From: Vermamoeba vermiformis
Lineage: Eukaryota
Direction of reading: 5' to 3'
Assembly: GCA_045837725.1 (NCBI GenBank)
Contig: JBEWZL010000287.1
Span: forward strand, 124,001-186,358
Length of the DNA: 62,358 nt
Below the pieces are notes generated by a model. That model was not told the DNA's origin. It made no database searches and saw only the letters and a list, made by a program, of their open reading frames with translations. This document shows positions 4,769-54,546 of the stretch, in pieces. The position numbers and the translations under genes are program-made. How positions within the stretch are numbered: the stretch's first letter is position 1; the number at the start of each line of letters is the position of its first letter.

Positions 4769-5917
4769 TTATTTGTTGACGAATAAGTCCTCTCCAATGA
4801 GATCGGTAATTGGTTGTAAAATGGATTTGATCTCCTTGACCACTGGCTCCGCGCTTTCTCCTGCAATCCTTAATACTGCACCATTAGACTTTAGTATAGG
4901 ACTAGCACTGCCGAAAATAAAGCTGTCGCTCGATAGGTCAGAGTTTCGGTTCGTTGAAGTAGATCTGTTCGTATATGACTTTCTTTGGTATGTAGCCAAT
5001 ATTTTCGTTATTAAATCTTGTACTTGAGGTCCAATAAGTATCAATATTGCAAATATATGAAACTTGAGCTCGCCAATGCGCATCCGCTCTTCGATAGGAA
5101 TCTGATCTTGGCTTGACAGTCGAACAACGTCGCGCATGAAGCATTCATCTTCCATCATTACTTGAATATCACTATGATACAGTCCAAACGACCAACTCTC
5201 GTTATTTGCAATCCGACCACTAAAAATTATCATTAGGTTTCCGTTCTAGATGCAGAGTTGAGAGAACGAACGAACGAATGAACTCAAATAAATAACGATA
5301 TATATGTGTATACCTAGTATACCAATCTAATACGACCAAAGAAGACTCTGAAGACTTCAATCGGTAGATCTGGGTCTGTTTGAACTGCGCGTCTTTGAAG
5401 CAACACGTGGGACCAGGCAGCGAACAAAATAAACTTTTGGCGCCAATTTTAACTGAAATGTGTTGTTGACTGGGCTGTAGCGATGAGCCTGATTTGTAGA
5501 CCTTGTTGTAGGACGAGCTTGTTAGAACGAGGCCTGAATTATCTTCTACCGTCACTTCGAAGGATATTATATCACCGCCTGCATATTCAAGGTTAATACT
5601 GGACTTAAATTTAACATTCGATTTCATCAAAACAAAAAAATTATCAGTGTAGCAGATCCGCTGTAAAATTGAATACTTGTGATTACTATAATACTAATAT
5701 GATGATATACATGATAACTAGTAATATGGGGCTATATAATACCTACGAGGCCACCGCCGTAATTGGTAGCGTAAACGATCTTCAAGTAGGGGTTATGTTT
5801 GTCGCTGCTAGTGACTAAAAATTTGAGCGGATAGGATGCAAATTGACGAATAATTTCTGTTTTGTTATTGACGGAGCGGCAATGAAGAATACCAGAGCCT
5901 GGTTGAGATCTAGACAT
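4769..5917 (-). CDS. ureD: Urease accessory protein UreD, eukaryotic type (3 exons)
   Basis: Motifs YPLKFL, YGGGLV|xGD, KVYKS, LPGPTCCFKDAQFKQTQ, VLDWYT|SGRIANNESWSF. Confidence 0.9.
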
Positions 5918-12381: not shown

Positions 12382-13201
12382 ATGACCCACATGTTCAGAC
12401 CACAGAATCCTTTGGGCAATGCCCGCGTGGAACCAACTAATGGCTCTGTAGACGATTTATTGAACATAATTGTTCTGCAGAAAATTTCCGAACCTAGCGA
12501 GGCTGTATCTTGCTACTTCGATCACAATCCCAGACCAAACAAACGTCAGCACACCGCCCCAGTCAGTTGGGCCGACTTAGATGTCTCGGATGATGAATTA
12601 AAAACACTCACAACAAGCAGCAACACCAAAGTTCGCCCATCTCCTCAAATCCTTCAGCCCATCCAAGAAGAGGCTGAGGTGGCAACTTTTGTATCGGCTA
12701 ATGACCAGCCTCTTCCATTTGATGGAATGGAGTTCCACACAACCACTACTATTGCGGATGATAGCTACGAAACAAGACGGAAGTTCCTGAAACGAAGAGC
12801 CTCAACTTTATACGAAAACGACAATACTGCTCAGGTAAATGACGTTGATATCTATCTAACCCTGATTCCGTTTTTTGCCAAATCGTTTATATAATGCAGC
12901 AGGTTTTAGTTTCATTACTTAATTTGTTTAGATGGAACTTCAAGACTGCTGAAAAAATCTCGCCTTTTGACAAGATTAACAAGCCCGAAATATGACGTGA
13001 CTAACTCGTATTCTCTAGGCTCAAGCCATCTACAAAAAGATGTACAAGACTCTGCCTACCTTCGTGGCTCGATCTGCTGGGGAAACAGGGAACTTAGTTC
13101 GCCCGACTCCAGTTTTTGGTGAAGGAATCAGACTCCCGACACCTTCTTTCGAGCCCATGGCGCAGTCCTTCGCTTCAGCTCCTTACGCGTTCAACCCGTA
13201 A
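12382..13201 (+). CDS. Hypothetical protein (2 exons: 12382-12834, 13019-13201)
   Basis: ORF MTHMFRPQNPLG...NTAQ joined through a GT-AG intron to AQAIYKKMYKTLPTFV...FNP*; no recognisable domain. Confidence 0.55.
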
Positions 13202-13773
13202 GCTAAACTACGAAGTTGAAACGAGATGAAATAGATACGAGATGCAAGCCTCCCTTCGACGCTTCAGCAGCGGGCTTTCGATGGATTAGAGTACATAGAC
13301 ACGAGCTCAGGCGAGTTTACGCTATTAGAAGCAAATTCAGGGCCGCCAACCGATTTCGAAAGCCTCTAAGCTTTGTGAACCACTTACGAGTCCCCGGAGT
13401 GCTATTTACGGCGTGTAAAATAATTACGAAATCAGCAATCGTAATCAAAGCAGTACCTCTGCAAGCTACGTCAGCGCTAACCGGCAGCCTATCACGACTA
13501 ACGAGATATTCGGAAATTGCTCGCGCTCGCGCAATTCCCTAATTTTACAAGTCGCGCAACTCCTGTGTCGCGACATCATAAATAAACAAACCTTTACGCA
13601 AAACTACGAGTGCTCACGAACCACAATTTCAATTCCTCGAGCAAACTTTCGAAAAACAGTTACTCTCGTCACTCGATCTGACGCATGACATCCGCAAGAC
13701 GAGAACACGAAACCGACTTGTTTATGAACCTGATTAGCGGCATACTTATAAGCAACGCACGGTGAGTCTATTG

Positions 13774-13792
13774 CAGATTCTCCTTGCCTTTT
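13774..13792 (+). repeat. Target-site duplication, left copy
   Basis: CAGATTCTCCTTGCCTTTT identical to 20440-20458 (last 4 T overlap the A-tail). Confidence 0.92.
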
Positions 13793-16700
13793 TTTTTTGT
13801 TTTGAAATTCCTCACACTGCTAACTAGTCTCGCTATTTTATTTCTAGCGATATGACTAGTCCCACGCAGGACTTTATTAAGATTCGTTTCAAATACAATA
13901 TTTACAGGTTTAAAATATGTATATATCGGGTCCAATCCCTATTTCTCGGCTACTTCTAACTTTGTTCATCGATCTCATTTTCTCCATCCTGACGCCCCTA
14001 CTTTCCACTCGTCCCACTAATCATGGTTTTAACGAATGTTGCTTGCCCCACCTCAAGCATCTATTCGGGGGTTATTTCATCAGGTTTTGGATTTCGATCT
14101 TTGAATTTTGGTCAGTCGCATCCGGTAATCTAGTTATTTTTCCCGTTCTGATAATATTAAAATTAAAATTCGTTAAAATATAGTTGCTCGATTGCCTTTC
14201 TTTGCTCTTCTTCCTCTTGTTCAATATTGTTGAATTGTTCTTCGAGCTTTCTGGCCTTCTGTTCTACGTGCGTAAGTCCTTTCTCGACTATGATCTTGTT
14301 CCTTTCATTCCATATTTGATTGAATGATTGAATAATGATATTATTAATTCTCTTCGCTTTCCTTAATGTAATGACTCTCTCCAGGTGGATCGGTATTGCT
14401 CCGCGACAAGCTAATTGCTCAGGGAAGAAGCGGTTCTCTTGTGTTGGTGCGAGCCATAGATATCTGTTATTTGGTATGTTCATTTCATCCTTAATTTGTT
14501 GCTTCAGTTCTTCTCTTATTTCATGGTACTTTTCGCATCGTAGCATCACGTGTTCTTGATCTTCGTCTTCTTTTCCACACGCCGGGCATAATCTCGAGTC
14601 GTATAATTCTGCGCATCTTGTTGACAATAGGCTCATTGTTGGCAGTGCTTTGGCGTTGCATTGAATGGCGAAGTTCAGTCTGTCTTGATTCCTTCCGGTA
14701 CTAAAGAAAGACGGAATTTTCCATACTTGTTCGCTTGTTGCTGTTCTTATCGATGCTATTGTTGCTTCTTTCTTCATGCGTTGGTTTTGGCTATCTATTC
14801 GGATTATTTTGGAGATATTGCCTTCGAATAACTCGTTCTTAATTAGCGGGATATACATTGGTAAGTGTTTCCAGTTGATTGGGGCCCGTTGTTCTCGTTC
14901 ATTCGTTTCTTTTGCCGCTTTATCTGCCTTCTCGTTGAGTTTCGAAAGTTCGTCTTGGTTTCCTGTGTGCGCTTTAATATGTCTTAGTGATACGTTTACC
15001 TGGTCCATGATCTCTACGATTCTTCGTATAATTGATGCGTTGTCATTCTTATTGATTATTTTCTCTTTTCTCGTTCTCCGGTATTTTTCGATGATTTGTA
15101 GAGTCGTTTTTGAGTCCGATATAATATTGATGTTCCTGTTATTGATTAGGTTCTTTTCTAGGCATATTTGGATTCCGTATGCCTCTGCTCTTGCAATTGA
15201 CTGTTGTTCGGGCACTCGGTGTTTGTACGTGGCTTTATCTGAGACCACTGCCGTGGTTGCAATTTCACCTCGTTTAGATCCGTCCGTTGCCCATATCAGG
15301 TTGTTTAACGGTACGTTGTGTTGCATTCGTTCGGTGTATCGTTCTAATCTAGCATGCGCTGTTTCATAGACTTGGTTGAATATTGGTAGTATTGCTCGTT
15401 GTCGATCTATTGGTAGTTTGAATGTTGTTTCGTAGTGGTAGTTTATGGGACGGCAGGTAATTAGATCGTATATTGGAGCGTGTTCTCTTCCATTTCGTTT
15501 GAATAAACTGCATATTTTCTTCATTTTTTCGTTCTTCCTGCCCTTGAGTTCGGTTTCAAGGGTTTTCTCTTGCTCTTTTGTTAGTTTGATTTCGTTGAAG
15601 TATTCTTCGATCGTTAAATCCTCTATCTCCTTTGTCGGGGCCTTGTTGATGAAGATTTTTATGTCTAATTCGTGCAGTGTTTTGATTGCGTTAACTATAT
15701 TTGGTGGATATTTCTTTGATTTGTTATCGTTCCGTATATTTCTTCCGTTTAATACTTGTGTTTTATAGTCTTTATTCATATCCGTTATTGTGTTCTCGGT
15801 CGTTAATCGTACGAAAATATTCTTGTTATTTAAGCACTTCATGAGGTTACTTACCATCCTTCCTTTATTAATTGCCTCGAGGTCTTCGATATGATGCGCA
15901 AATAGTTTCTTGTCGAGGAAATACATCGATGTTGCGATGCGGTAGGCGTTCGTTGGATCTGCTTTGTTCTTAATCGCTCTAATTATTTCCTTGTTGAAAG
16001 ATTTGCTGTACGGTACCAGATCCGCTGAAAATCTGTATATACTAATGGTGTCCGAGTTAATCAGGTTCAGCTTTGTTTCGGCTGGTATGTTATGTTTCGT
16101 TATTCGCTTCATGCTATTTTTCATTGCGTATTTCATTATTCTTTCATGTTCGCTCCAGTTAACGTATTTGTCTATGTGATATCCCAAGAAGCGCATTGTG
16201 TTACTCGGTTTGATTTCTGTCTGGTCAACGTTGATTACGTCATCGTTGTTATTATTGAAGGCCATATAGCTGCTTTTGTGTGGTGATAATTTCATTTGAT
16301 ACGCGTCCAGGAATTGTACTAGCTCGTTAGTCATTGTTTGTAGTTCTTCGTTTGATCGTGCGATGAAATTCGAGTCATCTATCCATTGTAGTCCTGGTAT
16401 GTGTATATTATTTACCTCGTATCCCCTTTGCTTCGATATCATCCAGCGCGTAAACATATCCATGAAAAGGACAAATTTGAGCACGCTGAAAGGGTCTCCT
16501 TGTGGTATTCCTTTGTTGAAGATAATATCTCGTGAGTGTCCGTATACTGTTCGCACTTTGTTAATTAGTTTGTCTTGCATGAAGATAATTGTTTCTATCA
16601 TCTTATTTGGTAATCCTAGAGAGCGGAATGTGTCGATGACGGCTTCGTTTGGTTCGTTGTCGTACGCTCCAGAAATATCGTGGCATCCGATGTGCAGTTC

Positions 16701-19700
16701 ATCCTGCTGTCTATGAGCTTTCTTAATGATGTTAATTATCACTTGGGTTGCTTCTCCGCAACTCGTATTTGTAATTCCTCCAAATTGACATGGTGTTATG
16801 AATTGTATTTGTTGGTTCATTATGCTAATTCGTTCTGCGATCACTCCTGTAATTACTTTGTATGCTATTTCCAAGAGCGTAATCGGTCGGTAATTTTTTG
16901 GTGAATATTGGTTATCTCGTTTGTAAATTAATACGATTTCCGCGCTCTTGAAATTTTTAGGTGATAATTTTTCATTAACGATAGCGTTTAAAATATTCGT
17001 GTATAATTCAATTCCTTCCTTGGGTAATATTTTAATCATTTCGTACGTTACCTCGTCAATACCGCTGGCCTTTCCGTTTGGTCTTTCTCTAATATGATTT
17101 ATCAATTCGTCGACCGTTATGTCAGCTTCCAGTTTTTGGTTACTATTATATTGTGCTATTTGTGCTCTTGTTTCCTTCCAAATATCATCGTGTAACCATG
17201 GTTTTGTTACGTTCCTGGGTTGTATGTTTTGACGCTGTTGTTCGAAATAGTTTGCTATCGATTCTTTTACGTTGTCGGGGTTTGTTATTAATTCTCCATC
17301 ATTTGTAGTTATAGCTCTCAATTGGACGTTCTGGGCTCTATTGAGAATTGATCTAATTTTCGATGAGTTGGCATGCCCTTCGTTCTTGATCAAGTCTTGC
17401 CATTCTTTCGTTCGTTGTTCTCGGAATGCTTTGATTTCTTTATTCAGTTTCTTATTGGTTCGATTCTTCTTATTAGTTAGCTCCTTCAAGTATATGTCGA
17501 TATCGGCGTGATTTATGTCTCCTGGTTTGAGTTCGGCGATATCTTCCGTCAACTCGTTTGGTTCGAAAATCTTTCTATCTTCATTTGTTATATTAATCGG
17601 ATTTGTCGCTTGTATGAATTTCATTCTTTTGATCGCCCTGTTGATCCAGCTAATTCTTCCTATTAGCCGTCCTCCTTTCGAGTCGTACGGGAAGGTTCTG
17701 GTTGTCTTCTTGATACTTCTTTTTGTCTGTGCGTAGATACGCTTCGCCGTTGTCGTTATAATTTCGTTAAATTGTTCGTAGAGGTGCTCGCCTTTGTCTT
17801 TCTTGTCCGTTTTAAATTCTTCGATCGTTTCCTCGTTTTGGTAGCACCAGTTACTGATCATTCTTTGGTATTCGTGTAATTTCTTTTTGTCTCTTCTATC
17901 AATTTTGATTCGTTCTTTGAATTGTTGCGCTTCTACGTTTCCTGTAATTAACTTGGGGGAGATTGTTAGTACTACCGGTAGGTGGTCCGCGATCTCGACA
18001 TTAATTGTTTTGCACGTGACCACTCCGTCCCGGAAATTAGTTAATATGTAGTCTAGTTTACTTGCGTAGTTCTTTCTCATGAAGGTGGCTCGTTCTTTAA
18101 TATTGTCGTTTTCATCATGTTCTTCTAACTGACATTTGTCCCGAAAAAGCTGCATATGTTTGATTTTATGGTGTGTATTATGCGTGGCGTCTTTTTTGCT
18201 GATTAAGTTATTGAAATCGCCACCAATGATGATTCGATTTTCGTTTTCTTTGACAATCTTCGTAATTTGATTCAGGAATTGCGGTTGTTCTCTCTGGTCT
18301 GCTGGTCCATATACTCCAATTATTCGTATTCTTTCGTTTTCTTGTGTAACGACAGATAACTCGCAATATCTTCCTTCTGTTATTTCGTTTTCATCGGTGT
18401 TCTTTGGATCAACCGTGATTATGCTTGGCTTTGTTAGTATTGCTACTCCTCCTCGTGCGCTATTTGGTCTTTTTCTTATTCGTTTTGATTTCGCACTTAT
18501 GCTTCGCCATTCGTAGCCTGGTATATTTATTGGAGTGACTGTGCCGTGGATCCGTCTAATTTTGTGTTCTGTTAGTATTATTATATCGGGCTCATAATCC
18601 TGTATCCACCGTACGAGCTTATTTATTATTATTAGAGACGATAGACACATTACGTTCACTGCCGAGATCGTTATGTGTTTTTCCTCTAACGCGTTGGTAT
18701 TACTCGCTTGTACCTGGGATATTAATAGGAACAAGGTCATTATAATTGTCGTACGGGGATACAGGGAAGGCTTATTTATTGACGATGCTACACGGGGTTG
18801 TTTGCTTTGTTTATCTTCTCCTTCGTCGTCTTCGCGCGTTCTTTTCTTGGTTGTTCGTTGATCCGGATTGATTGACAATGTCTCCATTACTTTGTTGATT
18901 TTGTCGTCAAGCTTTTTCTGCATTTCTTCTCTTGCTCGCTCTTTCTCTTGCTCGATCTCGGATCGTTTTTGATCTCTTTCAATTTGACTTGTCATTAGCG
19001 TCATTAGCTGATTGAATCTTTCGTCATTACTCTTGTCTCTCTCGGCTTGAATTGCAATCTGCTTTTCTTGGATTGCTAATAAACGGTCGGTTTGTTCAAT
19101 CGATCTTCTCACCGTTTCGATAAGAAGGTTAGTTGTCGTTCTAAATTCGTTGACTATCTCCATTCCAGTATTGGTTTCTTTTGACTTCAATTGAATTTGA
19201 TCTGGTTGTCTTTCCATTGATTCGTTGTAGTCGATCGTGTTTTGAATTTTCACATTTGTGTCGTTGATCTGCTTTAATTGTCTTTTGATTTTATCGCTTT
19301 CCTCTGCTGTGAATGTTCCAATATAAATCAATCCTTTGCTTTTGTCGAAATCGAGGTAAGCTGGTTTAATTCCCGTCTTGTTCTGAATTTCTTGGATTAC
19401 GCTGTTTTCGTCTTGCGTTGCTGTAATCTTTCTCGGAACATTGGAGATCGTTATTTCCGTGTATGACTTCGGTATTCTCTTTCCTGTCATGTAGAATTCT
19501 ATTTCTAGTCCGTTCTCCTTGATCTCGAGGTTCTTGATTTGCTGAGCGAAAAACTTTCTGGTCGTATTGACTACTCCCCAGAATTGATTATTGCTTTTTC
19601 CTGGGAATACTAGCACTTTGCTTTTGCTAATTAGTTGATCGGTTTGCTCTTCAATTCCTTTGATGATGATGTTTCGGATTTGATCTCTGTCTTCCTTATT

Positions 19701-20439
19701 GAAACCATGGTTACCACTCGTTCGTAGTAAGACAGTTCTAGCAACGTCTCGATCTCCATAATCAGCTCGGTAGTCGATTTCCATGTGAGCCACCTCTCTG
19801 TTAGCGATTTTGTCCGCTTCATCCGGATTGAGGTTGATGAAGACGTAGTCCATTTCTGCATTTCCTTTTGATTCAGGTTTTTGCACGTTATTAATCTTGA
19901 CTTTGAGAGCTTTCTCTAAGTGTTCGCGGATCGCCGTCGAGGATTTCTTCATGACATCTGCTGTGACACCTTTCACTGTTAAGTGCGCGCCTTCAAGTTT
20001 CGCTTCGGTGATTGGAATTGCTTCTGGTATGTTCGTTATTCGTTGCTCTTCCTCTTCCTTCTGTTTCGCTGCGTACGTTTGAAGACAGTCTGTAAAGTAT
20101 CGGATCTTCATCGCAGTTTCACTGGACAGCGTTGTTTCCCATTTGAAACCTTCTTGTTCGGTGTCCATGATCACCATTGAGAAGGCAATGTCGTTCTTGT
20201 TCTCGTTCTTTGCTGAAATGTCGGTGATCTTCAGAACAATAAAGTTTTCGGGTTTGTCTCGGATCTTCTGTTCTTCGAGGTCATCGATAATAATAGCTTT
20301 GTTCTTAATTGTTATTTCTAGGTTCTCTAATTGCGTTATAATGTTCTCCTCCTGATCGAGGTCCATTTGGCTGGTCATTTCGGTTTTAATAAAATATAGA
20401 TAAATTGATTTGTGGTGCCCAACACATGACTGAAACACC
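13789..20439 (-). mobile_element. Full-length non-LTR retrotransposon (LINE; APE-RT-RNase H type)
   Basis: Flanked by direct repeat CAGATTCTCCTTGCCTTTT; short A-tail (T run 13789-13798 on +); intronless 6.2 kb ORF with LINE domains. Confidence 0.95.
14163..20378 (-). CDS. Retrotransposon polyprotein, 2071 aa: ORF1-like region, APE endonuclease, RT, RNase H, CCHC finger
   Basis: APE: LTEHK, VYGP, GGDFN, KLDYIL, DHLP. RT: KASGIDEV, YRPITLL, QFGG, DISGAYD, GIPQGDPFS, WIDD, FLGY. RNase H: TDGS, AEAY, SDS, HIKAHTG..NEKADKAA. CPAC..EDQEHVMLRC. First ATG inside the TSD is 20378. Confidence 0.95.
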   Translation of the reverse strand: MTSQMDLDQEENIITQLENLEITIKNKAIIIDDLEEQKIRDKPENFIVLKITDISAKNENKNDIAFSMVIMDTEQEGFKWETTLSSETAMKIRYFTDCLQTYAAKQKEEEEQRITNIPEAIPITEAKLEGAHLTVKGVTADVMKKSSTAIREHLEKALKVKINNVQKPESKGNAEMDYVFINLNPDEADKIANREVAHMEIDYRADYGDRDVARTVLLRTSGNHGFNKEDRDQIRNIIIKGIEEQTDQLISKSKVLVFPGKSNNQFWGVVNTTRKFFAQQIKNLEIKENGLEIEFYMTGKRIPKSYTEITISNVPRKITATQDENSVIQEIQNKTGIKPAYLDFDKSKGLIYIGTFTAEESDKIKRQLKQINDTNVKIQNTIDYNESMERQPDQIQLKSKETNTGMEIVNEFRTTTNLLIETVRRSIEQTDRLLAIQEKQIAIQAERDKSNDERFNQLMTLMTSQIERDQKRSEIEQEKERAREEMQKKLDDKINKVMETLSINPDQRTTKKRTREDDEGEDKQSKQPRVASSINKPSLYPRTTIIMTLFLLISQVQASNTNALEEKHITISAVNVMCLSSLIIINKLVRWIQDYEPDIIILTEHKIRRIHGTVTPINIPGYEWRSISAKSKRIRKRPNSARGGVAILTKPSIITVDPKNTDENEITEGRYCELSVVTQENERIRIIGVYGPADQREQPQFLNQITKIVKENENRIIIGGDFNNLISKKDATHNTHHKIKHMQLFRDKCQLEEHDENDNIKERATFMRKNYASKLDYILTNFRDGVVTCKTINVEIADHLPVVLTISPKLITGNVEAQQFKERIKIDRRDKKKLHEYQRMISNWCYQNEETIEEFKTDKKDKGEHLYEQFNEIITTTAKRIYAQTKRSIKKTTRTFPYDSKGGRLIGRISWINRAIKRMKFIQATNPINITNEDRKIFEPNELTEDIAELKPGDINHADIDIYLKELTNKKNRTNKKLNKEIKAFREQRTKEWQDLIKNEGHANSSKIRSILNRAQNVQLRAITTNDGELITNPDNVKESIANYFEQQRQNIQPRNVTKPWLHDDIWKETRAQIAQYNSNQKLEADITVDELINHIRERPNGKASGIDEVTYEMIKILPKEGIELYTNILNAIVNEKLSPKNFKSAEIVLIYKRDNQYSPKNYRPITLLEIAYKVITGVIAERISIMNQQIQFITPCQFGGITNTSCGEATQVIINIIKKAHRQQDELHIGCHDISGAYDNEPNEAVIDTFRSLGLPNKMIETIIFMQDKLINKVRTVYGHSRDIIFNKGIPQGDPFSVLKFVLFMDMFTRWMISKQRGYEVNNIHIPGLQWIDDSNFIARSNEELQTMTNELVQFLDAYQMKLSPHKSSYMAFNNNNDDVINVDQTEIKPSNTMRFLGYHIDKYVNWSEHERIMKYAMKNSMKRITKHNIPAETKLNLINSDTISIYRFSADLVPYSKSFNKEIIRAIKNKADPTNAYRIATSMYFLDKKLFAHHIEDLEAINKGRMVSNLMKCLNNKNIFVRLTTENTITDMNKDYKTQVLNGRNIRNDNKSKKYPPNIVNAIKTLHELDIKIFINKAPTKEIEDLTIEEYFNEIKLTKEQEKTLETELKGRKNEKMKKICSLFKRNGREHAPIYDLITCRPINYHYETTFKLPIDRQRAILPIFNQVYETAHARLERYTERMQHNVPLNNLIWATDGSKRGEIATTAVVSDKATYKHRVPEQQSIARAEAYGIQICLEKNLINNRNINIISDSKTTLQIIEKYRRTRKEKIINKNDNASIIRRIVEIMDQVNVSLRHIKAHTGNQDELSKLNEKADKAAKETNEREQRAPINWKHLPMYIPLIKNELFEGNISKIIRIDSQNQRMKKEATIASIRTATSEQVWKIPSFFSTGRNQDRLNFAIQCNAKALPTMSLLSTRCAELYDSRLCPACGKEDEDQEHVMLRCEKYHEIREELKQQIKDEMNIPNNRYLWLAPTQENRFFPEQLACRGAIPIHLERVITLRKAKRINNIIIQSFNQIWNERNKIIVEKGLTHVEQKARKLEEQFNNIEQEEEEQRKAIEQLYFNEF

Positions 20440-20458
20440 CAGATTCTCCTTGCCTTTT
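20440..20458 (+). repeat. Target-site duplication, right copy
   Basis: CAGATTCTCCTTGCCTTTT identical to 13774-13792. Confidence 0.92.
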
Positions 20459-20594
20459 CAAAAATCTCGGAGCGAGCTTCAAACTTTGACCACCAAATTT
20501 TCAACAATGTTTTGGTCGTCAAAAAAAATACCAACTTGCCCTTGACAAAAATTTGTAAGTCAATTTCACTATTCACGTACATATAATATCAATC

Positions 20595-21836
20595 ATGGAA
20601 GTTCTTAACGCACCTGGCCAAATCAATACTGCCGCTGATCCCAAACAACACAGATTTGAGGCTTACGTTAATAACGGAGGGTAAGGCGAGCATTGACCAA
20701 AATCGAAAATAATTGTTAATTAATTATTAGAACCGTATTGGCAATTGCTGGCAGCAATTTCGCTGTTGTCGCTGGAGATACGAGAATGAGCACTGGCTAT
20801 GCTATTCACACTAGATATGCTCCAAAGACTTTCCAATTGTAAGAATATATTATTATAGGATATATAACATTTTTTTGGTCATTTTATAATTGCAATAATG
20901 TCAATATGGAGATTATGACGAAAAATTTTGCATCGACTAAAAATTTTTCATTTATTTACATACTCTCAAAATCTATAATTTCTTCGTGCAATATTATTTA
21001 GGCACACGTAGTATACTCATATGATAATAATCAGTACTTTCTAGTGCAATATAATTTAATAAATTTGTGACAATAATAATAATTAGATGCGTCAATCCCT
21101 ATAGTTTGGTATTAATTCCTCGTTAGAACGAACAAAGCCGTTATTGCTACATCTGGTATGCAAGCCGATCAAAAAGCTCTTCACAAATTATTGGCCACCA
21201 GAATCAAGAGCTACGAATACGTGCACCGCAAGAAAATGAGCACTCCTGCCATCGCTCAAATGCTCGCCAATACTTTGTACTATAAGAGATTTTTCCCTTA
21301 CTACACTTTTAACGTGTTGGGCGGTATTGATGAACAAGGTAAATTTCCGTTTTGAATGGGCGAATGTGCGTGTCACACTCGTTCTTCATAATACTTGAAA
21401 TGAATATTCATATAATGCATGGTGTTCTAACTGGCAATCTTAGGCAAGGGATGTGTATATTCATATGATGCTGTCGGTTCTTACGAAAGAGTCGCTTACT
21501 CAACATCCGGATCTGGAGCTGAATTAATCCAACCTTTGCTCGATAACCAAGTAAGTCTATCAGCTATCCTATTATATACTTACACATATAATGATATATA
21601 TATGTGCGCGGTTAGGATTAGGCAACTAACTGTTTCTTTTCAATTGTAAGGTTGCGCGTAGAAACCAAAAGCTCGACGGACCCATCACTTTGACATTGCA
21701 AGAAACCATTGAACTCGTCAAGGACGCCTTGAGCTCGGCTGCTGAAAGAGATATTTACACTGGAGACTTTGCTGAGATTTACATCATCACTCAAGAGGGC
21801 ATCCGAAAGGAGGACTTTGAGTTGAAGCACGATTAA
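20595..21836 (+). CDS. PSMB1: 20S proteasome beta subunit type 1 (yeast Pre7/beta6), 5 exons
   Basis: [17 protein letters not shown]...AGDTRMS...[41 protein letters not shown]...QPLLDNQ...[10 protein letters not shown]. Confidence 0.95.
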
Positions 21837-37667: not shown

Positions 37668-40600
37668 TTATAACGTTTCGAAGACGTTCTTTTTGGCGTA
37701 TTTCTTGGTGCACACCAACGACGTGATGAGCACAGCAAGAGCTGCACCGAGCACCAAAGCAATGGCACCAACGATCCAAGGATTGGCATCCGAAAGAACT
37801 TGTCCTACGCTCTCAGGTCCCTTTGAAGGTGATTCTGCAGGCGTGTTAGTGTCGCTCAGTGACTCCACAAAGCTCAGTTTTTGAGTGAAGGCACCGCCGT
37901 CCGCGTAAGTCAACCACAAGCTGACGTCAAGCGAGACGTTTGATGGCACGTACGATGGCGTGAAGCAGCCCACGTGATTGTCATCGAGTCGGAATGCACC
38001 CGTGGTAGCTAATTCGAAATGTCAATCACTGAATTCAAAATATGACACGTGTCAACATAATTTTTCCAAGCTAAGACGCTATTGGCATCAATATAATATC
38101 ACATACCATATTGGAAGACGCAAGTCAAGCAGTCACCAGACAAAGTCGGGCGTGCAGATTGACCGAAGCAGCCCTTGAACTCGCGAATAGTGTCCTTGAC
38201 TTCAACTTCGATCCAGTTCTGTGAGTTGCTCTTCACTTCACTCGTGCTCAATTTGACGACAGTGGCAGGGTCTAACAAATCAAATGAGTGTCAAACTTAA
38301 AAGTCAACTACGATTACTTACACCAAGTCTGAAAAGCGTATGGACCAAAGGTCTTGCCGTTATATTCAATTTTGAACGAGTACATGGCAGGTTCTAACGG
38401 CTTTTCAGCAGTAAAAGTTGCGCTGATGTAATCAAGTGCGCCTCCAAATGTCATAGTGGATGTCTCCAAAGTGATGCCATAGTTCAGTTCGGTCACTGTA
38501 GCATTAGCGATTGAAGAGTTGAAGTTGGTGCCGGTCCAAAAAACAGATACTAAGGAAAATGATAATTAATACGCATATGACTTAAGAAGATGGTTGAAAT
38601 GAGGACTTACGAGTTTGAGTGCCGTTGAGCAAAGGAGCACCAACAACGGGCGATGACAAAATAGTAGGAGCATCGTTAATTTTAGCGCTGCAAGGGACAG
38701 TCTTGTTCAGACCAGTAGCGAAGACAGCCAGCTCAAGTTGAGCACAGTCAGCGGCGGTAATAGTGAGATTCGATGATTGGCCAGTGATAGGGTCCTTCAA
38801 GACAGTGCCGTTTTGAAGGAATTCATTGCAAGCCTTAATATGAAAAATTGAGTTTGCGACAAGATGCTAATGTCCGATAGGGCCTACCTGTGTCAAGAGG
38901 GCGGCGTGCTGAATGAAGTTGGTAGTTGAAGTGTGCGAGCCAAGTGCACGGATGTAAATGTTGAAAGCCTTGATCAAACCAACACCATCAACAATGACGT
39001 TGTTCACAAAACCTCCATCGACGAAGAGAGCGTAGGCTTGGTTGGGAACTCCGGAGTTTGAGTGCACGCCTCCGTTATCGATTGCAGGATTGCAACTAAG
39101 AGAGGCCTTAGTAAAATATCACCACTTGATAAACGGTTCAGACTTACACGAAGGTTGAGTCAGTGGTCGTGGCAGGATGCTTGTAGCAAGTCGGGTTGTA
39201 CATGTCACGAATGCCAATAGTATAACCAGCAGTAGATAACTTGGGAATAGCCTCAGTCACTTGATCTCCGATAACCCAACGAAGACTCTCGGAAGTATTG
39301 AAATCGCAGCGTCGGTGAGAACGTGGAGGGTAGTATCGCGGTACTTGAAGCATGAGTTGTGTGCTTTCACCGATGATGTCAGCATATGCTTCATTGAGAG
39401 CTCCGGACTGGCCTTGATAAACCAAATTTCCACCGTAAGAGCTGACATAGGCTACGTTCCAGGGTTAGCGAAACACGGTACGTCGAAGCAAAAAATTTAA
39501 CGTGGATGTACTCACCATGACCCCATTCATGGGCTACAACATCAATACCAGCCATGCCAGGGCAGAAGAATGTGTGATTAGCGTTGAAGTAGGCGTTGGG
39601 GCATCGAAGCAAGCTTGGTGCGACTTGCATTTGCATCAATGTACCTGACAAACGTAATTCAGCAACCAAGGCTCCGTATAGAGGTGTGCTTACCGTTGTT
39701 GTCCCAAGAATTATAATCAATGAGATTGCTGAAAATAGTGTACACGGTCTTGCTAGCCAACAGCAAATTCTCGATGGTCGCGTCAGTTGTGTTCTTCGGA
39801 TCCGAGACTTCATCCCATGATGTTTGCAAAGAGCCATCTTGCCAGTTAAATCCCAAAATCTGTCTGTGGAGTGCGTGTCGGATCGTTGACATGTGCGAGA
39901 TGATTTTGCCGTCGTGTGCATCCACGAACACTTCGTAGCCGAGGGTGATCGGTTGTGAGCTCTGTACAACAATTTTGTGGACAAGATGGATTGTGTCGTA
40001 AATAGAAGGGCCAGTAAGACCTTGTTTGAAGATCATAAGGCCGGTAGGCTCAACAGACCAAGACTGCGAATCCGGATGCAACATAGAGAGCATTTTCAAA
40101 GTTACTTCAATGGCCTTTGATTCATCAACTCTTGGTTCAGTGTCGACCGAGGAGAGTTCTTTTGGATGTATCAAAACGCCGCTTAAACTAGTAATGTGGG
40201 CGTTATGATTGAATTTGATTTTCAGATCGCCTCCAAAAACTTCGACACCTTGGAACTTCTGCTTGTAGTGATGCGTAGACCAATGCGCGATTTGTTTGTC
40301 CAGAAATTCGTGTTGAAAAGTCAAATCAGCCACTGTGAGCCCATTAAAGCTACTAGAATGTTCGTTGAGAAATTCAGCTACCAGATCTTGTTTTGATTGA
40401 GTCAAATGAACCACTCCTTGCTTTGGCATTTTATGATACGGCTCATTGAGTGTAATTAAAAAGGGCATGTTGGTGTTCTCGTTGTTAACGATCGAGAATT
40501 CGCTTGATCGAGCCAAGCCTGTAGAAAATTGATTTTAATAAATATAATCGCTGTTGATTATTTAATAAATATTTTTTGATTTTTTAAATTAAACTGGTCG

Positions 40601-46430: not shown

Positions 46431-49400
46431 ATGAGTGACTCAGAGATGTCCGATATAAGCGAGGTCGACTTTGAAGACGACTTCGAGGAGACACCCAAGA
46501 AGGTAACGATCGAATCTTGCTTGCAGAATTTTTTAAAATATTCTCTCCTACTGAATGTACGTTAATAATGGATGTAAATAATAGAAAGCACCTGCCAAGG
46601 CTGCTCCTAAAAAAGCTGCGGCGAAAAAAACATCTGACGAAAAACCCGCCAAAAAGAAAGCAGCTCCGAAAAAGAAGAAAGCAAGCGACGATGAGATGGA
46701 CTTGGATGATGACGACGATATGCCCATGCCCATTGACGATGATGAGGACGAATCGCCCCAAAGTACGTCAGATTTAAAAATTAAATTAATTGTTGCGAAT
46801 CTTTTTTGATTGAAGCGACGCTCATATCGAAATTAATATAGAGCCCGCCAAACCAAAGAAAAATAAGACCGTTGATGAGACATACACAAAGATGGATCAA
46901 CGCGAGCACGTACTTGCGCGACCTGATATGTACGTTGGCTCGACTCACAAGATTAAAGGTAAATAACAGGTTCTATTTACTATCGGCGGCTATAAATATT
47001 AACAACTCCTAATAGAACCTCAATACGTCTATGACGATGAGAAAGGCGGCATGATCCTCAAGAACTTGACTTATGCCCCTGCTTTGTACAAGATTTTCGA
47101 CGAAATTCTCGTGAATGCAGCCGATAACTACCAACGTGATAGCTCTATGAGCACTATTAAAGTCACTCTCGACAAGGAGAAGAACTTGATCAGCGTTTAC
47201 AACGACGGAGCAGGTAAGCAAACAAGAGACCAATAGTGCATTAATAGTATACGGTAGTCGTATTATATCAATACCTATTAATCGTTGCATAAACAGGTAT
47301 TCCTGTCAAGGTCCACGAGCAACACAACATCTGGATCCCTGAAATGATTTTCGGTCATTTGTTGACTGGTTCCAACTTCGATGACGAAGAAGACAAGGTT
47401 ACTGGTGGTCGTAACGGTCTCGGAGCTAAGTTGGCCAACATTTACAGTTTGGAATTCACCGTTGAAACTGCCTCATCCAAGTTCAAGAAAAAGTTCAAGC
47501 AGACTTACCGCGACAACATGATCGAGAAGGAGAAGCCTCGCGTTACTGACAACGCTAAGGGCGAAGATTGGACCGAAATTACTTTCAAGCCCGATCTGAA
47601 GCGCTTTGAAATGGAGGAGCTCGAAGACGATATGATTGAGCTCATGCGCCGTCGTGTTTGGGACGTTGCTGGCTGCAACTCCTCGCTCAAGGTACGTTCG
47701 TGCATTGTTTATCTCGTTAGACTCTTTGACTGATCCGTGCACAGGTGTACTTGAACGGCAAGAGATTGATGGTCAAGAGTTTCACTGATTACGTCAAGAT
47801 GTACTTCAAAGACGATCCTACACGCGATGTTGTCTTCGAGAGGGTTCTCGATAAGACTGGCAAGCGCCGTTGGGAAGTCGCTGTCACGAGTAAGACAAAT
47901 TTTCATGTTCGAACGTCATGTCTAACTTTGTTCCTAACAGACAGTGATGGTGAGGCTAAGCAAGTCAGTTTTGTGAACAGTATTGCTACTACTCGTGGTG
48001 GTACTCACATCACTCACGTGGCCACAAAAATCGTGAACTACTTGCAACCTATTGTCAAGAAGAGAAACAAGGGTGCTGAGGTCAAGCCGTTCCAGATCCG
48101 TAACCACTTGTGGATCTTCGTTAACGCACTGATCAACAACCCCGAGTTCGATTCTCAGACTAAGGAAACTCTCAAGAGCAAGCAGAACGCCTTTGGTTCC
48201 AAGTGCGAGTTGACTGAGGCCTTCTACAAGAAGCGTAAGTTCACAGCGTTGTTTACTGTGACACGTGTCTCATATTCTATTCAGTTGCCAAGGGCCCCGT
48301 CGTCGATCAAATCTTGACCTGGGCTCAAAACAAGGGCATGGGAGACTTGAAGAAGGTCAGCGGCAAGAAGACCTCCAAGTTGACTGGTATTGCCAAGCTC
48401 GATGACGCCAATCAGGCTGGTGGACGCAAGGCCGCTGATTGTACCTTGATCTTGACGGAAGGAGATTCCGCCAAGACTTTGGCTGTCTCTGGTTTGAGTG
48501 TCGTTGGTCGCGATTACTATGGTGTTTTCCCGCTTAAGTAAGATACTTTCATGACGTTTTCATCTTCTCAATTATTAATTTTGATCTTAGGGGTAAATTG
48601 CTCAACGTGCGTGACGCCACTAATGCGGCAATTAAGAAGAACGAAGAAATTATTGCCTTGACGAAGATTATGGGTCTTCAATTCTCTACTCAATACTCTG
48701 ACGTCACCAAGTTGCGTTACGGACATTTGATGATTATGGCCGATCAAGATCACGACGGTTCTCACATCAAGGGTCTCGTTATCAACTTTATTCACAAGTT
48801 CTGGCCTTCTTTGCTCAAGGTCCCTGGCTTCATGCTCGAGTTCATCACGCCTATCGTCAAGGTTACTAAGGGCAAGAACTCCGTTTCGTTCTTTACTATT
48901 CCCGAGTACGAGGCTTGGAAGGAGAAGAACAACACTGCTGGTTGGAAGATCAAGTACTACAAAGGTCTTGGTACTTCCTCTGCTGAAGAAGCTCGTGAGT
49001 ACTTCTCGGCCTTGCAAAAGCACCGAAAGGAGTTCATTTACAAGGGCGACAATGACGACGAAGCTATTGACTTGGCATTCGCAAAGAACAAGGCTGACAA
49101 CCGTAAGGATTGGTTGCGCAACTACCAACCTGGCACTTTCTTGGACAACTCTATGGCTAGAATTCCTTACAACGACTTCATCAACAAGGAGTTGATTCTC
49201 TTCTCTTTGGCCGATTGTCAACGTTCTATTCCTAGCTTGGTCGACGGTCTCAAGCCTGGTCAACGCAAGGTCTTGTTCTGCTGCTTCAAGCGTAACTTAA
49301 AACAAGAAATCAGAGTGGCTCAGCTCAGCGGTTACGTCTCCGAGAAGTCCATGTATCACCACGGTGAAGCCAGTTTGCACTCCACTATCATTGGTATGGC

Positions 49401-51905
49401 TCAGAACTTTGTCGGTGCCGACAACATCAACTTGCTCGAGCCTGTTGGTCAATTCGGTACTCGTTTGCAAGGTGGCAAGGACTCTGCTAGTGCTCGTTAC
49501 ATTCACACTCATCTGTCCGAGTTGGCTCGCTACCTCTTCCACCCTGATGACGACAAGATCGTCACTTACTTGGAAGATGAAGGTGTCAGCATTGAACCCG
49601 AGTGGTACATCCCCATTATGCCAATGGTCTTGGTCAATGGTAACGAAGGTATCGGTACTGGTTGGAGTACTAAGATTCCTAACCACAACCCTCGCGACAT
49701 TGTCGAGAACATTCGCCGCTTGATCCACAAGCAACCTGTTGAGCCCATGACTCCTTGGTACAGAGGCTTCAAGGGTTCAATCGAGTGGAGCGAAGCCGAC
49801 AAGACCTACATCGTTCGTGGCATCTGGTCTCGTGTTGACGACGACACCTTGGAAGTCACCGAGTTGCCTGTTCGCACTTGGAACTTGACTTACAAAGAGT
49901 TCTTGGAAGTCTGCATGGCTGGTGGCAAAGAAAAGGATAAGGAGAAGGACAAAGAAAAAGACAAGGACAAGGAGAAGGACGATGATGACGGCGAATTCAC
50001 CAAGGGCAAGAAGGGCAAAGCTGCCGCTGAAAAGAAGAAGCCTGCTGCCACTAAGCGCTACCCCGAAGTTAAGGGCTACAAGGATCACGGTACCGACACG
50101 ACTGTTCACTTCGTTATCAACGCTCCTGGTGTTGGCAAGATGAGCGATGATGAAATCGAGAAGTTGTTCAAGCTTCGCTCCAAGTTGGGCAAGTCCAACA
50201 TGCACTTGTTCGATGCCGAAGGTCGTATCAAGAAGTTTGACACACCGGAACAAATCATCGAAGAGTTCTATCCCTTGCGCTTGAAGTACTACGCCAAGAG
50301 AAAGGAGAACCTTGTTGAGAATGTTCAACGTGAATGGAAACGCTTGGAGAACCAAGTCCGCTTCATTTTGATGGTCGTCAAGAAGGAGATTGTCGTTGCT
50401 AACCGCAAGAAGGTTGATTTGCTCGAGGAACTTATCGAGAAGAAGTTCGACCCTATGCCCAAGCAAAAGAAAAAGAAGGTTGCTGGTACCGTTAAGAGAG
50501 GCAACAAGACTACCAATGTTGAGGTTGAAGCCGATGACGATGACGAAGATGAAGACGATGGAATTGAAGACGCCGACACCAACTCCAAGAACTACGACTA
50601 TTTGTTGTCTATGCCCATTTGGAGTTTGACCTTGGAACGTGTCAAGAAGTTGCAAGAGCAATTGAACGAGCGAAAGAAAGAGCTCGATGAGTTGCTCAGC
50701 ACTTCTCCCGAACAATTCTGGGAGGCCGATCTCGATGCCTTCCTTGAAAAGTGGGATGTAAGTAGTCACTACAAGATGCTCTTGATTAGATAGCTAACTC
50801 TTGGACATAGGATTATGAGGTTAAGCGTGTTGCTCGCGAGAGCACCAACCGCAAGGTTAAGAAGCCCATCGCTGGCAAGGCTAAGCCCAAGAAGAGAAAG
50901 ACCTTCGATGACAGCGATGAAAGCGACAGTGAGGACTTTGAAGTCAAGGCTCCCACCCCGAAGAAGGCTGCTCCTAAGCCCGCTGCACCTAAAGCCACGA
51001 CGACTGTCAAGACCGAAGTTAAGACTGAAGCACCCAAAACCACTACAACTACAGCTGCCAAGAAGACCGAGACAGCTGCTGATGACACTAAGAAGCGAAA
51101 GCTTGCCCAGGCTTCGTTGGACTCGTTCGCCTTCAGCACTAAGACTGCCAAGAAGGACGACGATGAAGACTCAAGTAAGTATTGTGGATCGCATGATGTA
51201 AAGCATGTCCTAATCCATCGCTCAGAACCTGCCGCTAAGAAGCAGAAGACAGGCATAACCACGTCTGTTGCTACAAAGAAGGCCGCTGATTCTGACAGTG
51301 ACGACGAGGACAGCAAGGCTGTGCCAATGTCACTGATGGAACGACTTGCCCTGAAGCGAAAGGAAGAAGCTGCCAAGGCTGCTAGTACCACTGCCAAGAA
51401 GCCTGCGGCCAAGAAGGACGACAGCGACGACGAGGATGACGACGACTTGGTCCCAGCCAAGAAGCCAGCACCCGCTCCTGCTAAGAAAGCTGCTCCTGCC
51501 GCCTCCAAGAAGCGTGCTATCGACTCAGATGACGACGACATTGATGAACTCGATGCCGATGATGATGACGTCAAGCCTGTCAAGAAGAGCGCTCCTGCTG
51601 CCAAGGCCAAGGCTGCTCCTGCCAAGAAAGTGAACCTTGTTGATGACGACGAGGACGATGAAGACGAGAAGCCTGCAAAGAAGGCTGCTGCTCGTCCTAC
51701 GCGTGCTGCTCCTAAGAAACGCGTTGTCGATGACGGTAAGTCGGATCTGGTGAAGCCCACACAAGGAGCAGAATACTAATGGTACTATACAACAGATGAT
51801 GAAGATGACGAGATTTCATCCTTGTCTGAAGAGGAAGAGGACTTTGATGGTGGCGATGACGATGAAGATGATGACGTCGATGAGGATGATGAAGACGACG
51901 ACTAG
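46431..51905 (+). CDS. TOP2: DNA topoisomerase II (type IIA, eukaryotic)
   Basis: EHVLARPDMYVGS, KIFDEILVNAADN, GGRNGLGAKL, TEGDSA, PLK|GKLLNVR, MADQDHDGSHIKG, KYYKGLGTS, DGLKPGQRK, YHHGE, ASARYI; long K/D/A-rich C-terminal tail. Confidence 0.97.
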
Positions 51906-52092
51906 ATCTCGATCCGATCCGATCTTTGCGCGACTTAGATCTTTCTTTTTGTTTGTAATTTTCATTTGCTTGTAATGTTGCTTTGGACGCAACATTATTA
52001 GCATTCATTTTATTGTTATAGTAAAGAGCTTTACATACACGAAAACCTTGGTGATTTTTATTTTGCGATCCAGAACAGAAGACAACAACACA

Positions 52093-54546
52093 ATGTGGAA
52101 AAAACCTTGGAAACCTCAAAAACAGAATTTAATTAAGACTTCCGATAAGAGGAGGTTAAAAGAAAAGATTGCAGAGCAATTTCCCAAGATCACGAAAGAA
52201 CAACTCGATCTGATCATCCCACAAAAGGGACAAATTACGACGATTAAAGTCGGAGGCGAATCAAGAACAGTTGTTTATTGCTTGGAGAAGGATCCTATAT
52301 TTTTTGATATTGATGGACGAGAAAAGCAATTTATTCCTACTGGTAATTTGATCTGCGCTCCTCATAATTAATGTTAATTGTTTTATTATTAAGATCTACC
52401 TGTATTTGAATATTTTAGCAATTAATTTGGCGAATAATGCATTATTAAATATTTTGAAAATTCATTTTTTGTTGGATCTGTCACTATGCGACTATAACCA
52501 TATTCATTCGTTGATTATTACTTAAAAACAATATTATTTAGTCTACACTCTTTGGAAGCTCGACGCATTCCTTCCGACATTTGTCACACCTACAGCTGTC
52601 TTCCGCTACATTTCAGGCGGTGCAGATCTGATGCTTCCTGGTGTTATTCCTCCAGACGGCAATCCTGATAATTACCCCGACTTTAAGGAAGGAGATTTAT
52701 TTACTATATCGTTCCCTGGCTATCCGTAAGTTCGCTATAAATGTCAGAAATATCTGTCGGACATAAATTTTTGTTCATGATTAATCACCGTTATTAATTT
52801 AATTTAATTTATTAGTAAGCCCTACGCTATTGGTTTGACTCAGTGCAGCAAAAATTCAATTAAACAAAACGGCATGACTGGTCGTGCATTGAAAGTTTTG
52901 CATTCGTATCCTGACAACTTGTGGAAAATTGGCAGCAAAGAGCATTTGCCACCGCCAGCTGAAAAACCTGAAGAAGAGCTTGACTTAAGTACGTTTCACC
53001 GTGACTTAATCATTTTGTTAATTTTCTTCGTGTAGCGCAAGTTGAGGAAACTCCTGAAGGAGAGCAAAAAGACGGAGAAAATGAAGGAGACGCGGAGAAT
53101 AAAGAAGGAACTGAGGGTGAAAAACCAGTTGAAGAAGGAGGCGAGAATAACAATACAAATGTGACTAGTGAAGGAACAGCTGAGCCATCGAACAATAACA
53201 ATAACAATGTGCCTGCCAAGCCTGAAGTTAATATGGACGAACTTATCGAAAAATCGTTCTTCCAAGCTATCAAACGGCGACTGAAAGACAAGGAATTGCC
53301 TATTTTGGCAAGCACATTTTACTCCAAGTACCTTTTGCCCTCGCGACCTGCAGGCACCGAGATCGACATCAAAAAGAGTTCTTATAAGCAAGTAAGTCAT
53401 ATTATAAGTATACCCGGTACCTAGTAATATTTAATTAATCTTATGATTGTTTTAGTTGCGTGGTCTCCTTGACGCAATGGTTGAAAAAGGCGTCATTAAA
53501 ATTCAATCGCAACAACAAGGCGTGATTATGATAACTGAAGTAATAAGAGACAATGAATGGTATGCTTTAATAGGACGAATAACGGTAGTATAAGGCACTA
53601 ACTGTTATGATAGGATTGCAAAGTTCAGAACTATGGCTATTGAGGCCACCGCTGAAGGCGCGAAAGACGAGCAAAACGACGATGAAGATGAAGACGATGA
53701 GAACTTGGCAATTAAAGAATTCTATCAAATCCCTAAAGACCTGTCGTTTTTAACTGAAGGCAACGAATAGTACGTAAATTTCCTTATTTGGTAATAACTG
53801 TTCTGACCAATGTTGCGATTTCTAGCAAGGAATTTCGGTCACTTACTGATTGCAACAAAGTTCTGTGGGACTATATTGCCGCTAAGAATCTTAATGTAGA
53901 AGGCAACGCGAGATTTGTATCATTGGATACGAACTTATTAACAATGCTCAGCAAGAATCAGAAGCAAGAGATTAACATTGGATCCGCTGACATGCCAAAA
54001 ATGGAAAAGAAGCAACTCGCATTAACGTAAGCTCATTGTTAGTATTAGATTTCATACCAATACTAACAATTCATACAGATTTAAGAACAAGCTCGTTCCC
54101 TATTATGAGATTATTGTGCACGGAATTCGAGAGATGAGGTGAGTTGATCAGATCCGGTACCTTTTCCTCACACTAATGAAATTTGCTTCAGAAAAGGAAC
54201 AGTAAAGAGCGTTGTAGTTACCGAGGATAGACGAGGACGACACGTAGTGGCTCATGTGAGTGGCTTAGAACACTTCGGACTCGATCCAAAAGAGGTTGCC
54301 AAAGCCTGCTCGAAAAAGTTTGCAGTCAGTTCTACGACAGCTAAACTTCCTGGAAAAGGTATAAATATAACATTTTTAGCAATATTTCAAGCTCTAATTA
54401 ATTGTTCAGATAACAATGCGATGGAAGTCCTCGTTCAAGGCAAGGATCTGCAAGATTCCATTGCCGAGTTGCTTGAAACGCAGTATAAGATTCCTTCTAA
54501 GTACATCGATGTAATTGAGAATCGACAAGCATCAAAAAAGAAGTAA
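52093..54546 (+). CDS. EIF2D: Translation initiation factor 2D (ligatin): PUA, SWIB-like, SUI1
   Basis: MWKKPWKP..IKTSDKRRL, PT|VYTLW, GGADLMLPGV, IDIKKSSYK, VSGLEHFGLDP..KKFAVS, EVLVQG. Confidence 0.92.

Follow-up and report, generated by a model that had tools for sequence, protein, structure and literature searches.

The stretch of Vermamoeba vermiformis DNA analyzed here (62,358 nt; assembly GCA_045837725.1, contig JBEWZL010000287.1, positions 124,001 to 186,358 of the forward strand; 'the window' below) carries on its minus strand, at 13793-20439, a retrotransposon without long terminal repeats (non-LTR), that is, a long interspersed nuclear element (LINE). The element is 6,647 bp long, sits between exact 19-bp target-site duplications, and has a single open reading frame (ORF) for a protein of 2,071 aa, P0001. 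We consider it likely that this is a young autonomous LINE of the APE type, whose one polyprotein has an N-terminal third analogous to ORF1p joined to an I/Tad-like ORF2; the label 'I/Tad-like' refers to the order of domains (APE endonuclease, reverse transcriptase (RT), RNase H, CCHC knuckle) and not to an RT phylogeny. All in all, the element is a real, young and probably active LINE with an unusual, conserved fused architecture.

Boundaries and reading frame of the element

The duplicated 19-mer is the sole exact repeat longer than 14 nt within positions 13500-20750, and the match between its two copies cannot be extended by even one base on either side; an exact-repeat search of the same interval found neither LTRs nor terminal inverted repeats. 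The sense strand of the element terminates in CAAAACAAAAAA. The duplication begins with AAAA on this strand, which leaves an uncertainty of up to 4 nt as to where the tail stops and the duplication starts. The reconstructed empty site reads ...CCTTTT/CAAAAA on the primer (+) strand. The 2,071-aa ORF is free of stops and frameshifts in the standard code; it is preceded by a 61-nt 5′ untranslated region (UTR) that may act as a promoter, and followed by a 3′ UTR with a terminal stem-loop. For the terminal 108 nt the folding energy is −26.3 kcal/mol (z −3.83), and none of 200 shuffled sequences was equally stable.

We characterized the element as a LINE by its target-site duplication, its A-rich 3′ end, the absence of LTRs and terminal inverted repeats and the location of APE upstream of RT in one ORF. 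Further copies were not found in the window (blastn, tblastn), and the scans of metagenome_contigs (two) and viral_contigs (one) yielded no relative; the Rfam and tRNA scans of the window for non-coding RNA were both empty.

A first-pass annotation, made from the letters of the DNA, had reported identical 19-bp duplications, a 61-nt 5′ UTR, a 3′ UTR of ∼370 nt and a short A tail, and all these numbers are correct. The uninterrupted frame of 2,071 aa that it described is borne out by the ORF at 20378..14166, its empty site, CCTTTT/CA, came out the same on reconstruction, and its proposal of an intact APE-RT-RNase H LINE agrees with the Pfam domains (Table 1) and with the perfect duplication. 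Its remark that the site resembles the L1 target TTTT/AA is right in a loose sense only: the site is indeed T-rich, while the sequences at the two readable sites are TTTT/C and TTT/C.

Table 1. Positions of the retrotransposon, of its parts and of other genes of the window (window coordinates)
Feature	Positions	Strand	Evidence and remarks
Whole non-LTR retrotransposon	13793..20439	-	6,647 bp, 42% A on the sense strand
Target-site duplication flanking the 5′ end of the element	20440..20458		exact 19-mer
5′ UTR, 61 nt	20379..20439	-	contains a 13-codon upstream ORF at 20427-20386, read from the sequence
Single ORF, 2,071 aa, protein P0001	14166..20378	-	stop codon 14163-14165
Predicted tandem RRM-like (beta-alpha-beta-beta-alpha-beta) domains	19221..20021	-	AlphaFold2 model, Foldseek, VIA-align
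Long helix, aa 404-501, predicted parallel in-register coiled coil	18876..19169	-	AlphaFold2 helix 405-501 and three-copy prediction
Basic/acidic linker (TTKKRTREDDEGEDKQSKQPR)	18768..18830	-	K-R-T...RED core also kept in P0012
Conserved helix of hydrophobic character (aa 543-559) with Q-x-Q-A at its end, directly preceding the endonuclease	18702..18752	-	AlphaFold2 helix 542-558; also in P0012
APE-type endonuclease	17973..18683	-	Pfam Exo_endo_phos 6.6e-11 (aa 587-802) and Exo_endo_phos_2
Reverse transcriptase core	16173..16922	-	Pfam RVT_1 2e-24 (aa 1153-1402)
RNase H domain	14904..15299	-	Pfam RNase_H 2.8e-14 (aa 1694-1825); D, E, D, D positions readable
C-terminal CCHC zinc knuckle (CPACGKEDEDQEHVMLRC), aa 1931-1948	14535..14588	-	weak Pfam zf-RVT match at aa 1908-1952; motif also in P0002
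3′ UTR, 370 nt	13793..14162	-	AATAAA at 13878 and 13842, terminal stem-loop 13809-13871, A6 tail 13793-13798
Target-site duplication flanking the 3′ end of the element	13774..13792		exactly the same 19-mer as at 20440-20458
UreD urease accessory protein, two exons	4772-5693	-
ORF with fungalysin/thermolysin propeptide motif	39662-40534	-
Topoisomerase II	47293-50790	+
eIF2D (Pre-PUA, WH_eIF2D and SUI1 domains)	51976-54543	+

Enzyme part of the polyprotein

Residues 566-2071 make up the APE endonuclease, RT, RNase H and the C-terminal CCHC knuckle, with the catalytic motifs present. Among solved structures the endonuclease is closest to that of L1 (1e-8), and it retains the N, E, GDFN and DH motifs. 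The alignment of the RT to PDB chains extends over aa 1080-1459; motif C reads IDD. In a phmmer search against PDB the best solved relatives of the RT region were R2 proteins (2.3e-16), with no match to L1 ORF2p at E ≤ 0.01; LINE RTs are represented among solved structures by R2 and L1 alone.

A word-index protein search with aa 570-2071 returned just 10 distant matches, all of them with identity of 25% or lower. The nearest full-length protein found was P0002, 1,828 aa in length, with the RT 25% identical to that of P0001 (E 2e-40).

Conservation of the fusion

When aa 1-560 were compared by HMMER with 1.84 billion representative sequences, a single hit was obtained, P0012 (E 7.2e-27). BLASTP aligned this protein with aa 181-640 of P0001 at 156 identities of 469 (33%; E 1e-59), in one frame across the junction; the frame spans the RRM-like region, the coiled coil, the K-R-T patch, the hydrophobic stretch and the first endonuclease motifs (AVNVMCLS, PDIxIxTEHK). 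The junction is bridged as well by two contigs from other copies or strains, one from sequencing run X1 (record 6, 18031-18950; 12 substitutions, no gaps, no stops) and one from run X5 (record 15, 18315-19821; no gaps).

Judged from these sequences, the fused frame did not arise by accident in this copy alone. The first-pass annotation had placed an ORF1-like part in frame with the endonuclease; a stop or frameshift at the junction was sought in the relative P0012 and in the two contigs, and was seen in none of them. As P0002 begins directly with the endonuclease, the fusion appears to characterize the P0001/P0012 lineage and not the wider group.

N-terminal module

Sequence searches with the N-terminal part gave little. 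Residues 1-580 had no match in Pfam, and aa 1-560 had no meaningful one even at E ≤ 10; a match to Transposase_22, the L1 ORF1p type, was likewise missing from Pfam results at E ≤ 10. A profile search of PDB with aa 1-560 produced nothing meaningful. Word-index searches gave 0 hits among 7,997 candidates for aa 1-560 (against proteins of 1,139-3,625 aa) and 0 hits among 7,933 candidates for aa 181-1100 (against shorter proteins). There was no usable match to aa 1-400 in the ESM Atlas, and BLASTP detected no sequence-level repeats between the N-terminal segments.

Structure prediction was more informative. The AlphaFold2 model of aa 1-560 built without an alignment (pLDDT 45) was too poor for structure searching; it consisted of alternating strands and helices, with helices at 405-501 and 542-558. 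With P0012 added as the second row of the alignment, the model of aa 115-400 had pLDDT 62.2 and pTM 0.53, with pLDDT values of 76-85 over aa ∼309-384. Foldseek matched this model to 168 PDB chains at E ≤ 1e-3, and the top matches were all multi-RRM proteins: Prp24 (5.9e-8) and raver1 RRM1-3 (4.6e-7), then SHARP, U2AF65 and hnRNP A1. In VIA-align, Z was at least 8 for 117 of the 997 aligned chains. Model residues 190-272 were superposed on the RRM of TRMT2A (7nto) with Z 9.7 and rmsd 2.3 over 76 of 78 residues, residues 192-269 on raver1 RRM1 with Z 9.6 and rmsd 1.8, and residues 94-190 on a UHM-type RRM with Z 8.7. Two predicted RRM-like domains, at aa ∼208-304 and ∼304-386, are thus well supported by the modelling, and a third one, at aa ∼120-205, is possible.

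The long helix that comes after these domains is predicted to self-associate. Three copies of aa 395-510 were predicted together with ipSAE of 0.67, the best of three controls reaching 0.01; in calibration this mark was reached by 21 of 30 proteins known as same-chain pairs and by 0 of 23 single-chain proteins (17 of 29 and 0 of 30, respectively, for eukaryotes), with the reservation that our job used three copies, unlike its calibration. No less than 82% of the contacts recurred between runs, with a partner pLDDT of 80 or higher. Coiled coils resemble many solved complexes, and the high score may thus reflect structures that the predictor had already learned.

Between the helix and the endonuclease lie a basic/acidic linker, which could possibly serve as a nuclear localization signal, and the hydrophobic helix, the third-highest hydropathy window of the protein. 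The latter, together with the Q-x-Q-A that ends it, resembles the core and the cleavage motif of a signal peptide.

According to the models, then, the N-terminal module would resemble ORF1p in fold and layout, and the resemblance should not be taken for homology to any known ORF1p. The impression of the first-pass annotation that the first ∼540 aa look like ORF1 gained weight from the RRM folds in the model of aa 115-400 and from the coiled-coil helix of ∼100 aa.

Copies, polymorphism and recent activity

Evidence on copies was drawn from the window and from contigs or reads of four sequencing runs, X1, X5, X8 and X21. In X1, a DNA run, the flanks of the element are identical to the window. 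Of 169 contig pieces aligned, 126 had identity of at least 99%, 37 of 95-99% and 6 of 90-95%; the summed depth over the element was ∼2 times that of the flank. The identities and the depth taken together indicate that several slightly different copies exist. A second full-length insertion, with its own duplication of ∼15 bp and a TTT/C nick site, was recovered from loose contig ends in X1 and X5, and the loose ends also revealed additional 3′ and 5′ flanks of the element. Those located behind 15306, 15411 and 15391 suggest 5′-truncated copies, at the level of read contigs rather than of a genome-wide census.

Thirty-two of the 40 listed differences (121 more exist) fall within the ORF: 26 third-position changes that are synonymous, and 6 non-synonymous changes. 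Such a pattern would be expected of copies derived from lineages that had remained functional.

The insertion is polymorphic. One contig of X5, a water-metagenome run, puts the 11 bases preceding 13774 directly before 20440, as in an empty-site allele. Among the pieces listed for X5 and X8, the flanks differ from the window by ∼1.6-2.6% (∼2.6% in X5), and the pieces of the element by only ∼0.3-0.4% (∼0.4% in X5). The element family looks younger than the split of the strains, or else it looks to have spread between lineages; a part of the gap may be explained by coding constraint.

As X8 carries spliced contigs of the flanks, it is an RNA run; a 288-nt flank intron has a depth of 0.86 there, compared with 57-63 for the exons. 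Pieces of the element found in X8 are near-identical to the window (for instance, 18765-19791 has 0 differences at depth 20). The first-pass annotation had called the element recent and probably active, and the empty-site contig, the near-identical copies, the 26:6 ratio of differences and the presence of pieces in a spliced transcriptome all speak for that judgement. The reads were also checked for polymorphism of the empty site, as it had suggested, and the X5 contig has the empty allele.

Several observations stand somewhat apart. An X1 contig with depth of 585, the shorter side being 25 nt, joins 13879 to 20410 and skips 6,530 nt; the last 87 nt of the element, with stem-loop and tail, are thereby united with its first 30 nt. 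This contig may represent an internally deleted, non-autonomous mini-copy keeping only the two ends. In X8, a contig skips 113 nt at 14271-14385, with GT..AG on the + strand, antisense to the element; the length is not a multiple of three, and the skip reflects either splicing of an antisense transcript or a variant with a deletion. Flank reads of X21 map at 12800-13373 and 20549-21400; this run bears the same species label as the best-matching DNA run, and the label probably covers diverged lineages.

Proposed mechanism and alternative explanations

By analogy with other LINEs, the life cycle could be as follows. One mRNA would be translated into a single polyprotein of 2,071 aa, with the N-terminal third, two or three RRM-like domains followed by a self-associating coiled coil of ∼100 aa, acting as the functional counterpart of ORF1p; this module would be connected to the ORF2-like part by the basic linker and the conserved hydrophobic helix. 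The polyprotein would bind its own RNA in cis, probably via the RRM modules and the 3′ stem-loop, and the coiled coil would multimerize it, so that the RRM/coiled-coil part would serve as a built-in device for packaging or chaperoning. The endonuclease would nick T-rich DNA at TTT(T)/C; the T-rich 3′-OH would pair with the A tail and prime cDNA synthesis (target-primed reverse transcription), RNase H would remove the RNA template, and a second nick 15-19 bp away would give rise to the target-site duplication. In this scheme we infer the binding of RNA, multimerization in the cell, the full-length fusion as the active form and the promoter, with the biochemical steps taken over from LINEs in general.

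A number of facts weigh against this picture. P0012 is a fragment of 446 aa, showing an open junction only and not an intact whole relative. No sequence-level homology of aa 1-560 to ORF1p or RRM families was found; the RRM interpretation comes from a two-sequence AlphaFold2 model with pLDDT 62, aa 1-119 having no model, and the order of the modules, RRMs before coiled coil, is the reverse of that in L1 ORF1p. On the RNA side, X8 has no contig over ∼15400-18700, so a full-length mRNA stays conjectural, and the pieces seen in X8 may come from carry-over of DNA of a multi-copy element. Among the raw RNA reads of X21 zero fell on the element, in a run where 278 of the 364 aligned reads are only 90-95% like the window.

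One could speculate that the ORF is not expressed solely as a polyprotein. If a shorter mRNA were polyadenylated at the border of the modules, or if the protein were cleaved near Q-x-Q-A, the RRM/coiled-coil module would be made in excess and the usual high ratio of ORF1p to ORF2p would be restored. The sense strand has 8 AATAAA. Its initial 1.66 kb is free of them, and the earliest three, at 18780 (18780-18775), 18627 and 18531, are clustered right at the border. The X8 RNA contig at 18765-19791 stops 10 nt past the first AATAAA, and X8 depth is 8-20 over the 5′ 1.7 kb with none over the APE-RT part; cleavage, for its part, would fit the retention of the hydrophobic helix and Q-x-Q-A in P0012. 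The coincidence of the contig end with AATAAA is weak, however, as ∼3% of the positions of the element are situated 5-30 nt past one of the AATAAA sites, and contig ends number roughly a dozen in X8; moreover, contig ends cannot show RNA ends, poly(A) is absent from the X8 contig, and a transcript ending in the region of 18765 would have no stop codon. Neither a protease domain (Pfam) nor a 2A (NPGP) motif was found in the element. We regard such a shorter product as unlikely, though worth keeping in mind. Somewhat less probable still is that the N-terminal 560 aa are a lineage-specific accessory domain, e.g. for recognition of host RNA or of the target, with packaging absent or supplied in trans by another element. 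This possibility draws on the lack of sequence similarity to any ORF1p family and on the fact that RRM folds are common and do many jobs; besides, some single-ORF subgroups of L2 and CR1 have an N-terminal PHD domain thought to function in targeting (PMC4120745), and other single-ORF LINEs with APE work without ORF1 (PMC3894237). Yet the joint presence of multiple RRM-like domains and a long self-associating coiled coil is the hallmark of the L1-type ORF1p (PMC5940361, PMC6428221), and the two readable target sites share only TTT/C, being otherwise unrelated, which argues against specific targeting.

The remaining explanation, that the fusion arose in one copy by loss of a stop codon or by misassembly and is a dead end, is nearly refuted. 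What speaks for it is that the window has a single copy; what contradicts it is a relative at 33% identity (P0012) with the same open junction, the two independent contigs from other copies or strains that bridge the junction without gaps, the 26 synonymous versus 6 non-synonymous differences between copies, and the second full-length copy with a duplication of its own. A functional polyprotein with a built-in ORF1p-like part is the explanation that we continue to hold as likely.

Genomic setting

The element sits in a gap between two transcribed regions, one reaching 13600 and the other starting near 20588; the latter shows GT..AG joints on the + strand. Upstream of 20587, the X8 transcript contig of this gene on the right has a stretch of 30 letters absent from the window (≤4 mismatches allowed); they may belong to a different 5′ exon or a spliced leader, or reflect a strain difference at the insertion site. 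Genes of the window, which has ∼39% GC, possess short GT-AG introns. Besides the genes given in Table 1, the window has an ORF with a fasciclin domain and an F-box/SPRY ORF. The topoisomerase II exon gives nearly the same score with the yeast enzyme as with the human one (696.7 and 678 bits); in view of this and of the UreD exons, a larvacean tunicate was rejected as the source of the window, whose genes suggest an aquatic eukaryote but not clearly an animal. As a guess, the fungalysin-propeptide ORF, UreD and the GC content would suit an early-diverging aquatic fungus. A further open frame of 499 aa, at 55801-57297 on the minus strand, had no Pfam family and no usable match in the ESM Atlas.

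Comparison with known systems and implications

In work on L1 it is held that many ORF1p trimers are required per ORF2p for retrotransposition, both being produced from bicistronic RNA. A bolder, rather tentative version of our proposal, one that we would not bet on at even odds, is that the element stands for a previously undescribed LINE lineage with its RNA-packaging protein permanently built into the replicase, which would work as a multimer (possibly trimeric) of ∼240-kDa polyproteins with RRM, coiled-coil, APE, RT and RNase H parts, held together by the coiled coil. If this were true, chaperone and enzyme would come in a 1:1 ratio, with cis-preference as an inherent property, contrary to the L1 rule of a large excess of ORF1p over ORF2p. 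A LINE that occurs in nature, is apparently active and makes both functions as one chain would put to the test the need for the ORF1p:ORF2p stoichiometry and for a separate ORF1, and the fused element would provide another example of modular ORF1 evolution. As a compact single-polypeptide retrotransposon with RNase H, it would be of practical interest as a model of RNA-templated insertion. For the host, the element would mark a still-moving family in the genome, with an insertion that varies between strains and has transcribed exons within a few hundred bp on either side.

Crude phrase searches of the open literature, Repbase, Dfam and subscription papers being outside their scope, brought up no natural LINE in which an RRM/coiled-coil ORF1 is fused to APE-RT-RNase H. 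P0002 is similar to the present element in having RNase H and the CPxCG...H...C knuckle; it differs in starting directly with the endonuclease, with no RRM/coiled-coil module, and in having a long Lys-rich C-terminal tail.

The single ORF of Ingi/L1Tc codes for APE-RT-RNase H as well. The element shares with Ingi/L1Tc and Vingi the possession of one ORF; it has, in contrast to Ingi and Vingi, an ORF1-like module of ∼560 aa and no NPGP motif. In Ingi and Vingi the single ORF is ORF2 alone, and the absence of ORF1 correlates with the presence of an N-terminal 2A peptide (PMC3894237). The 'young' APE-type LINEs are described in the same source as typically having two ORFs (PMC3894237).

An extra N-terminal domain in the same ORF as APE-RT is known from L2 subgroup 4 and CR1 subgroup 6, where what appears to be the only ORF has a PHD domain at its N-terminus (PMC4120745). 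The extra domain of these subgroups is a small PHD finger and not a combination of several RRMs with a coiled coil; RNase H is not mentioned in the portion of that paper that deals with them.

ORF1p of L1, which packages L1 RNA, forms trimers through a coiled coil and also has an RRM and a CTD (PMC5940361, PMC6428221). The present element would be like it in its predicted long self-associating coiled coil and RRM fold; it is also like L1 in the endonuclease, closest to that of L1 among solved structures, and in the T-rich target. Unlike in L1, the module is reversed, with the RRMs first, has several RRM-like domains, is not of the Transposase_22 type and is covalently joined to ORF2, and the RT region hits R2 proteins and not L1 ORF2p at E ≤ 0.01.

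In domain architecture the enzyme part is like that of LINEs of the I group and of Tad1-like ones. ORF2 of the I factor holds APE, RT/RNase H and a C-terminal Cys-His domain (PMC2881922), and the I-group/Tad1-like LINEs (e.g. the Drosophila I factor) have the same ORF2 order of APE, RT, RNase H and CCHC as the present element. They also have, as seen here, insertion without site specificity, target-site duplications and an A-rich tail. These LINEs have a separate ORF1, with gag-like Cys-His motifs in I, whereas the present element has no separate ORF1 and no upstream zinc knuckle; it has instead an RRM/coiled-coil module fused in frame with the enzymes.

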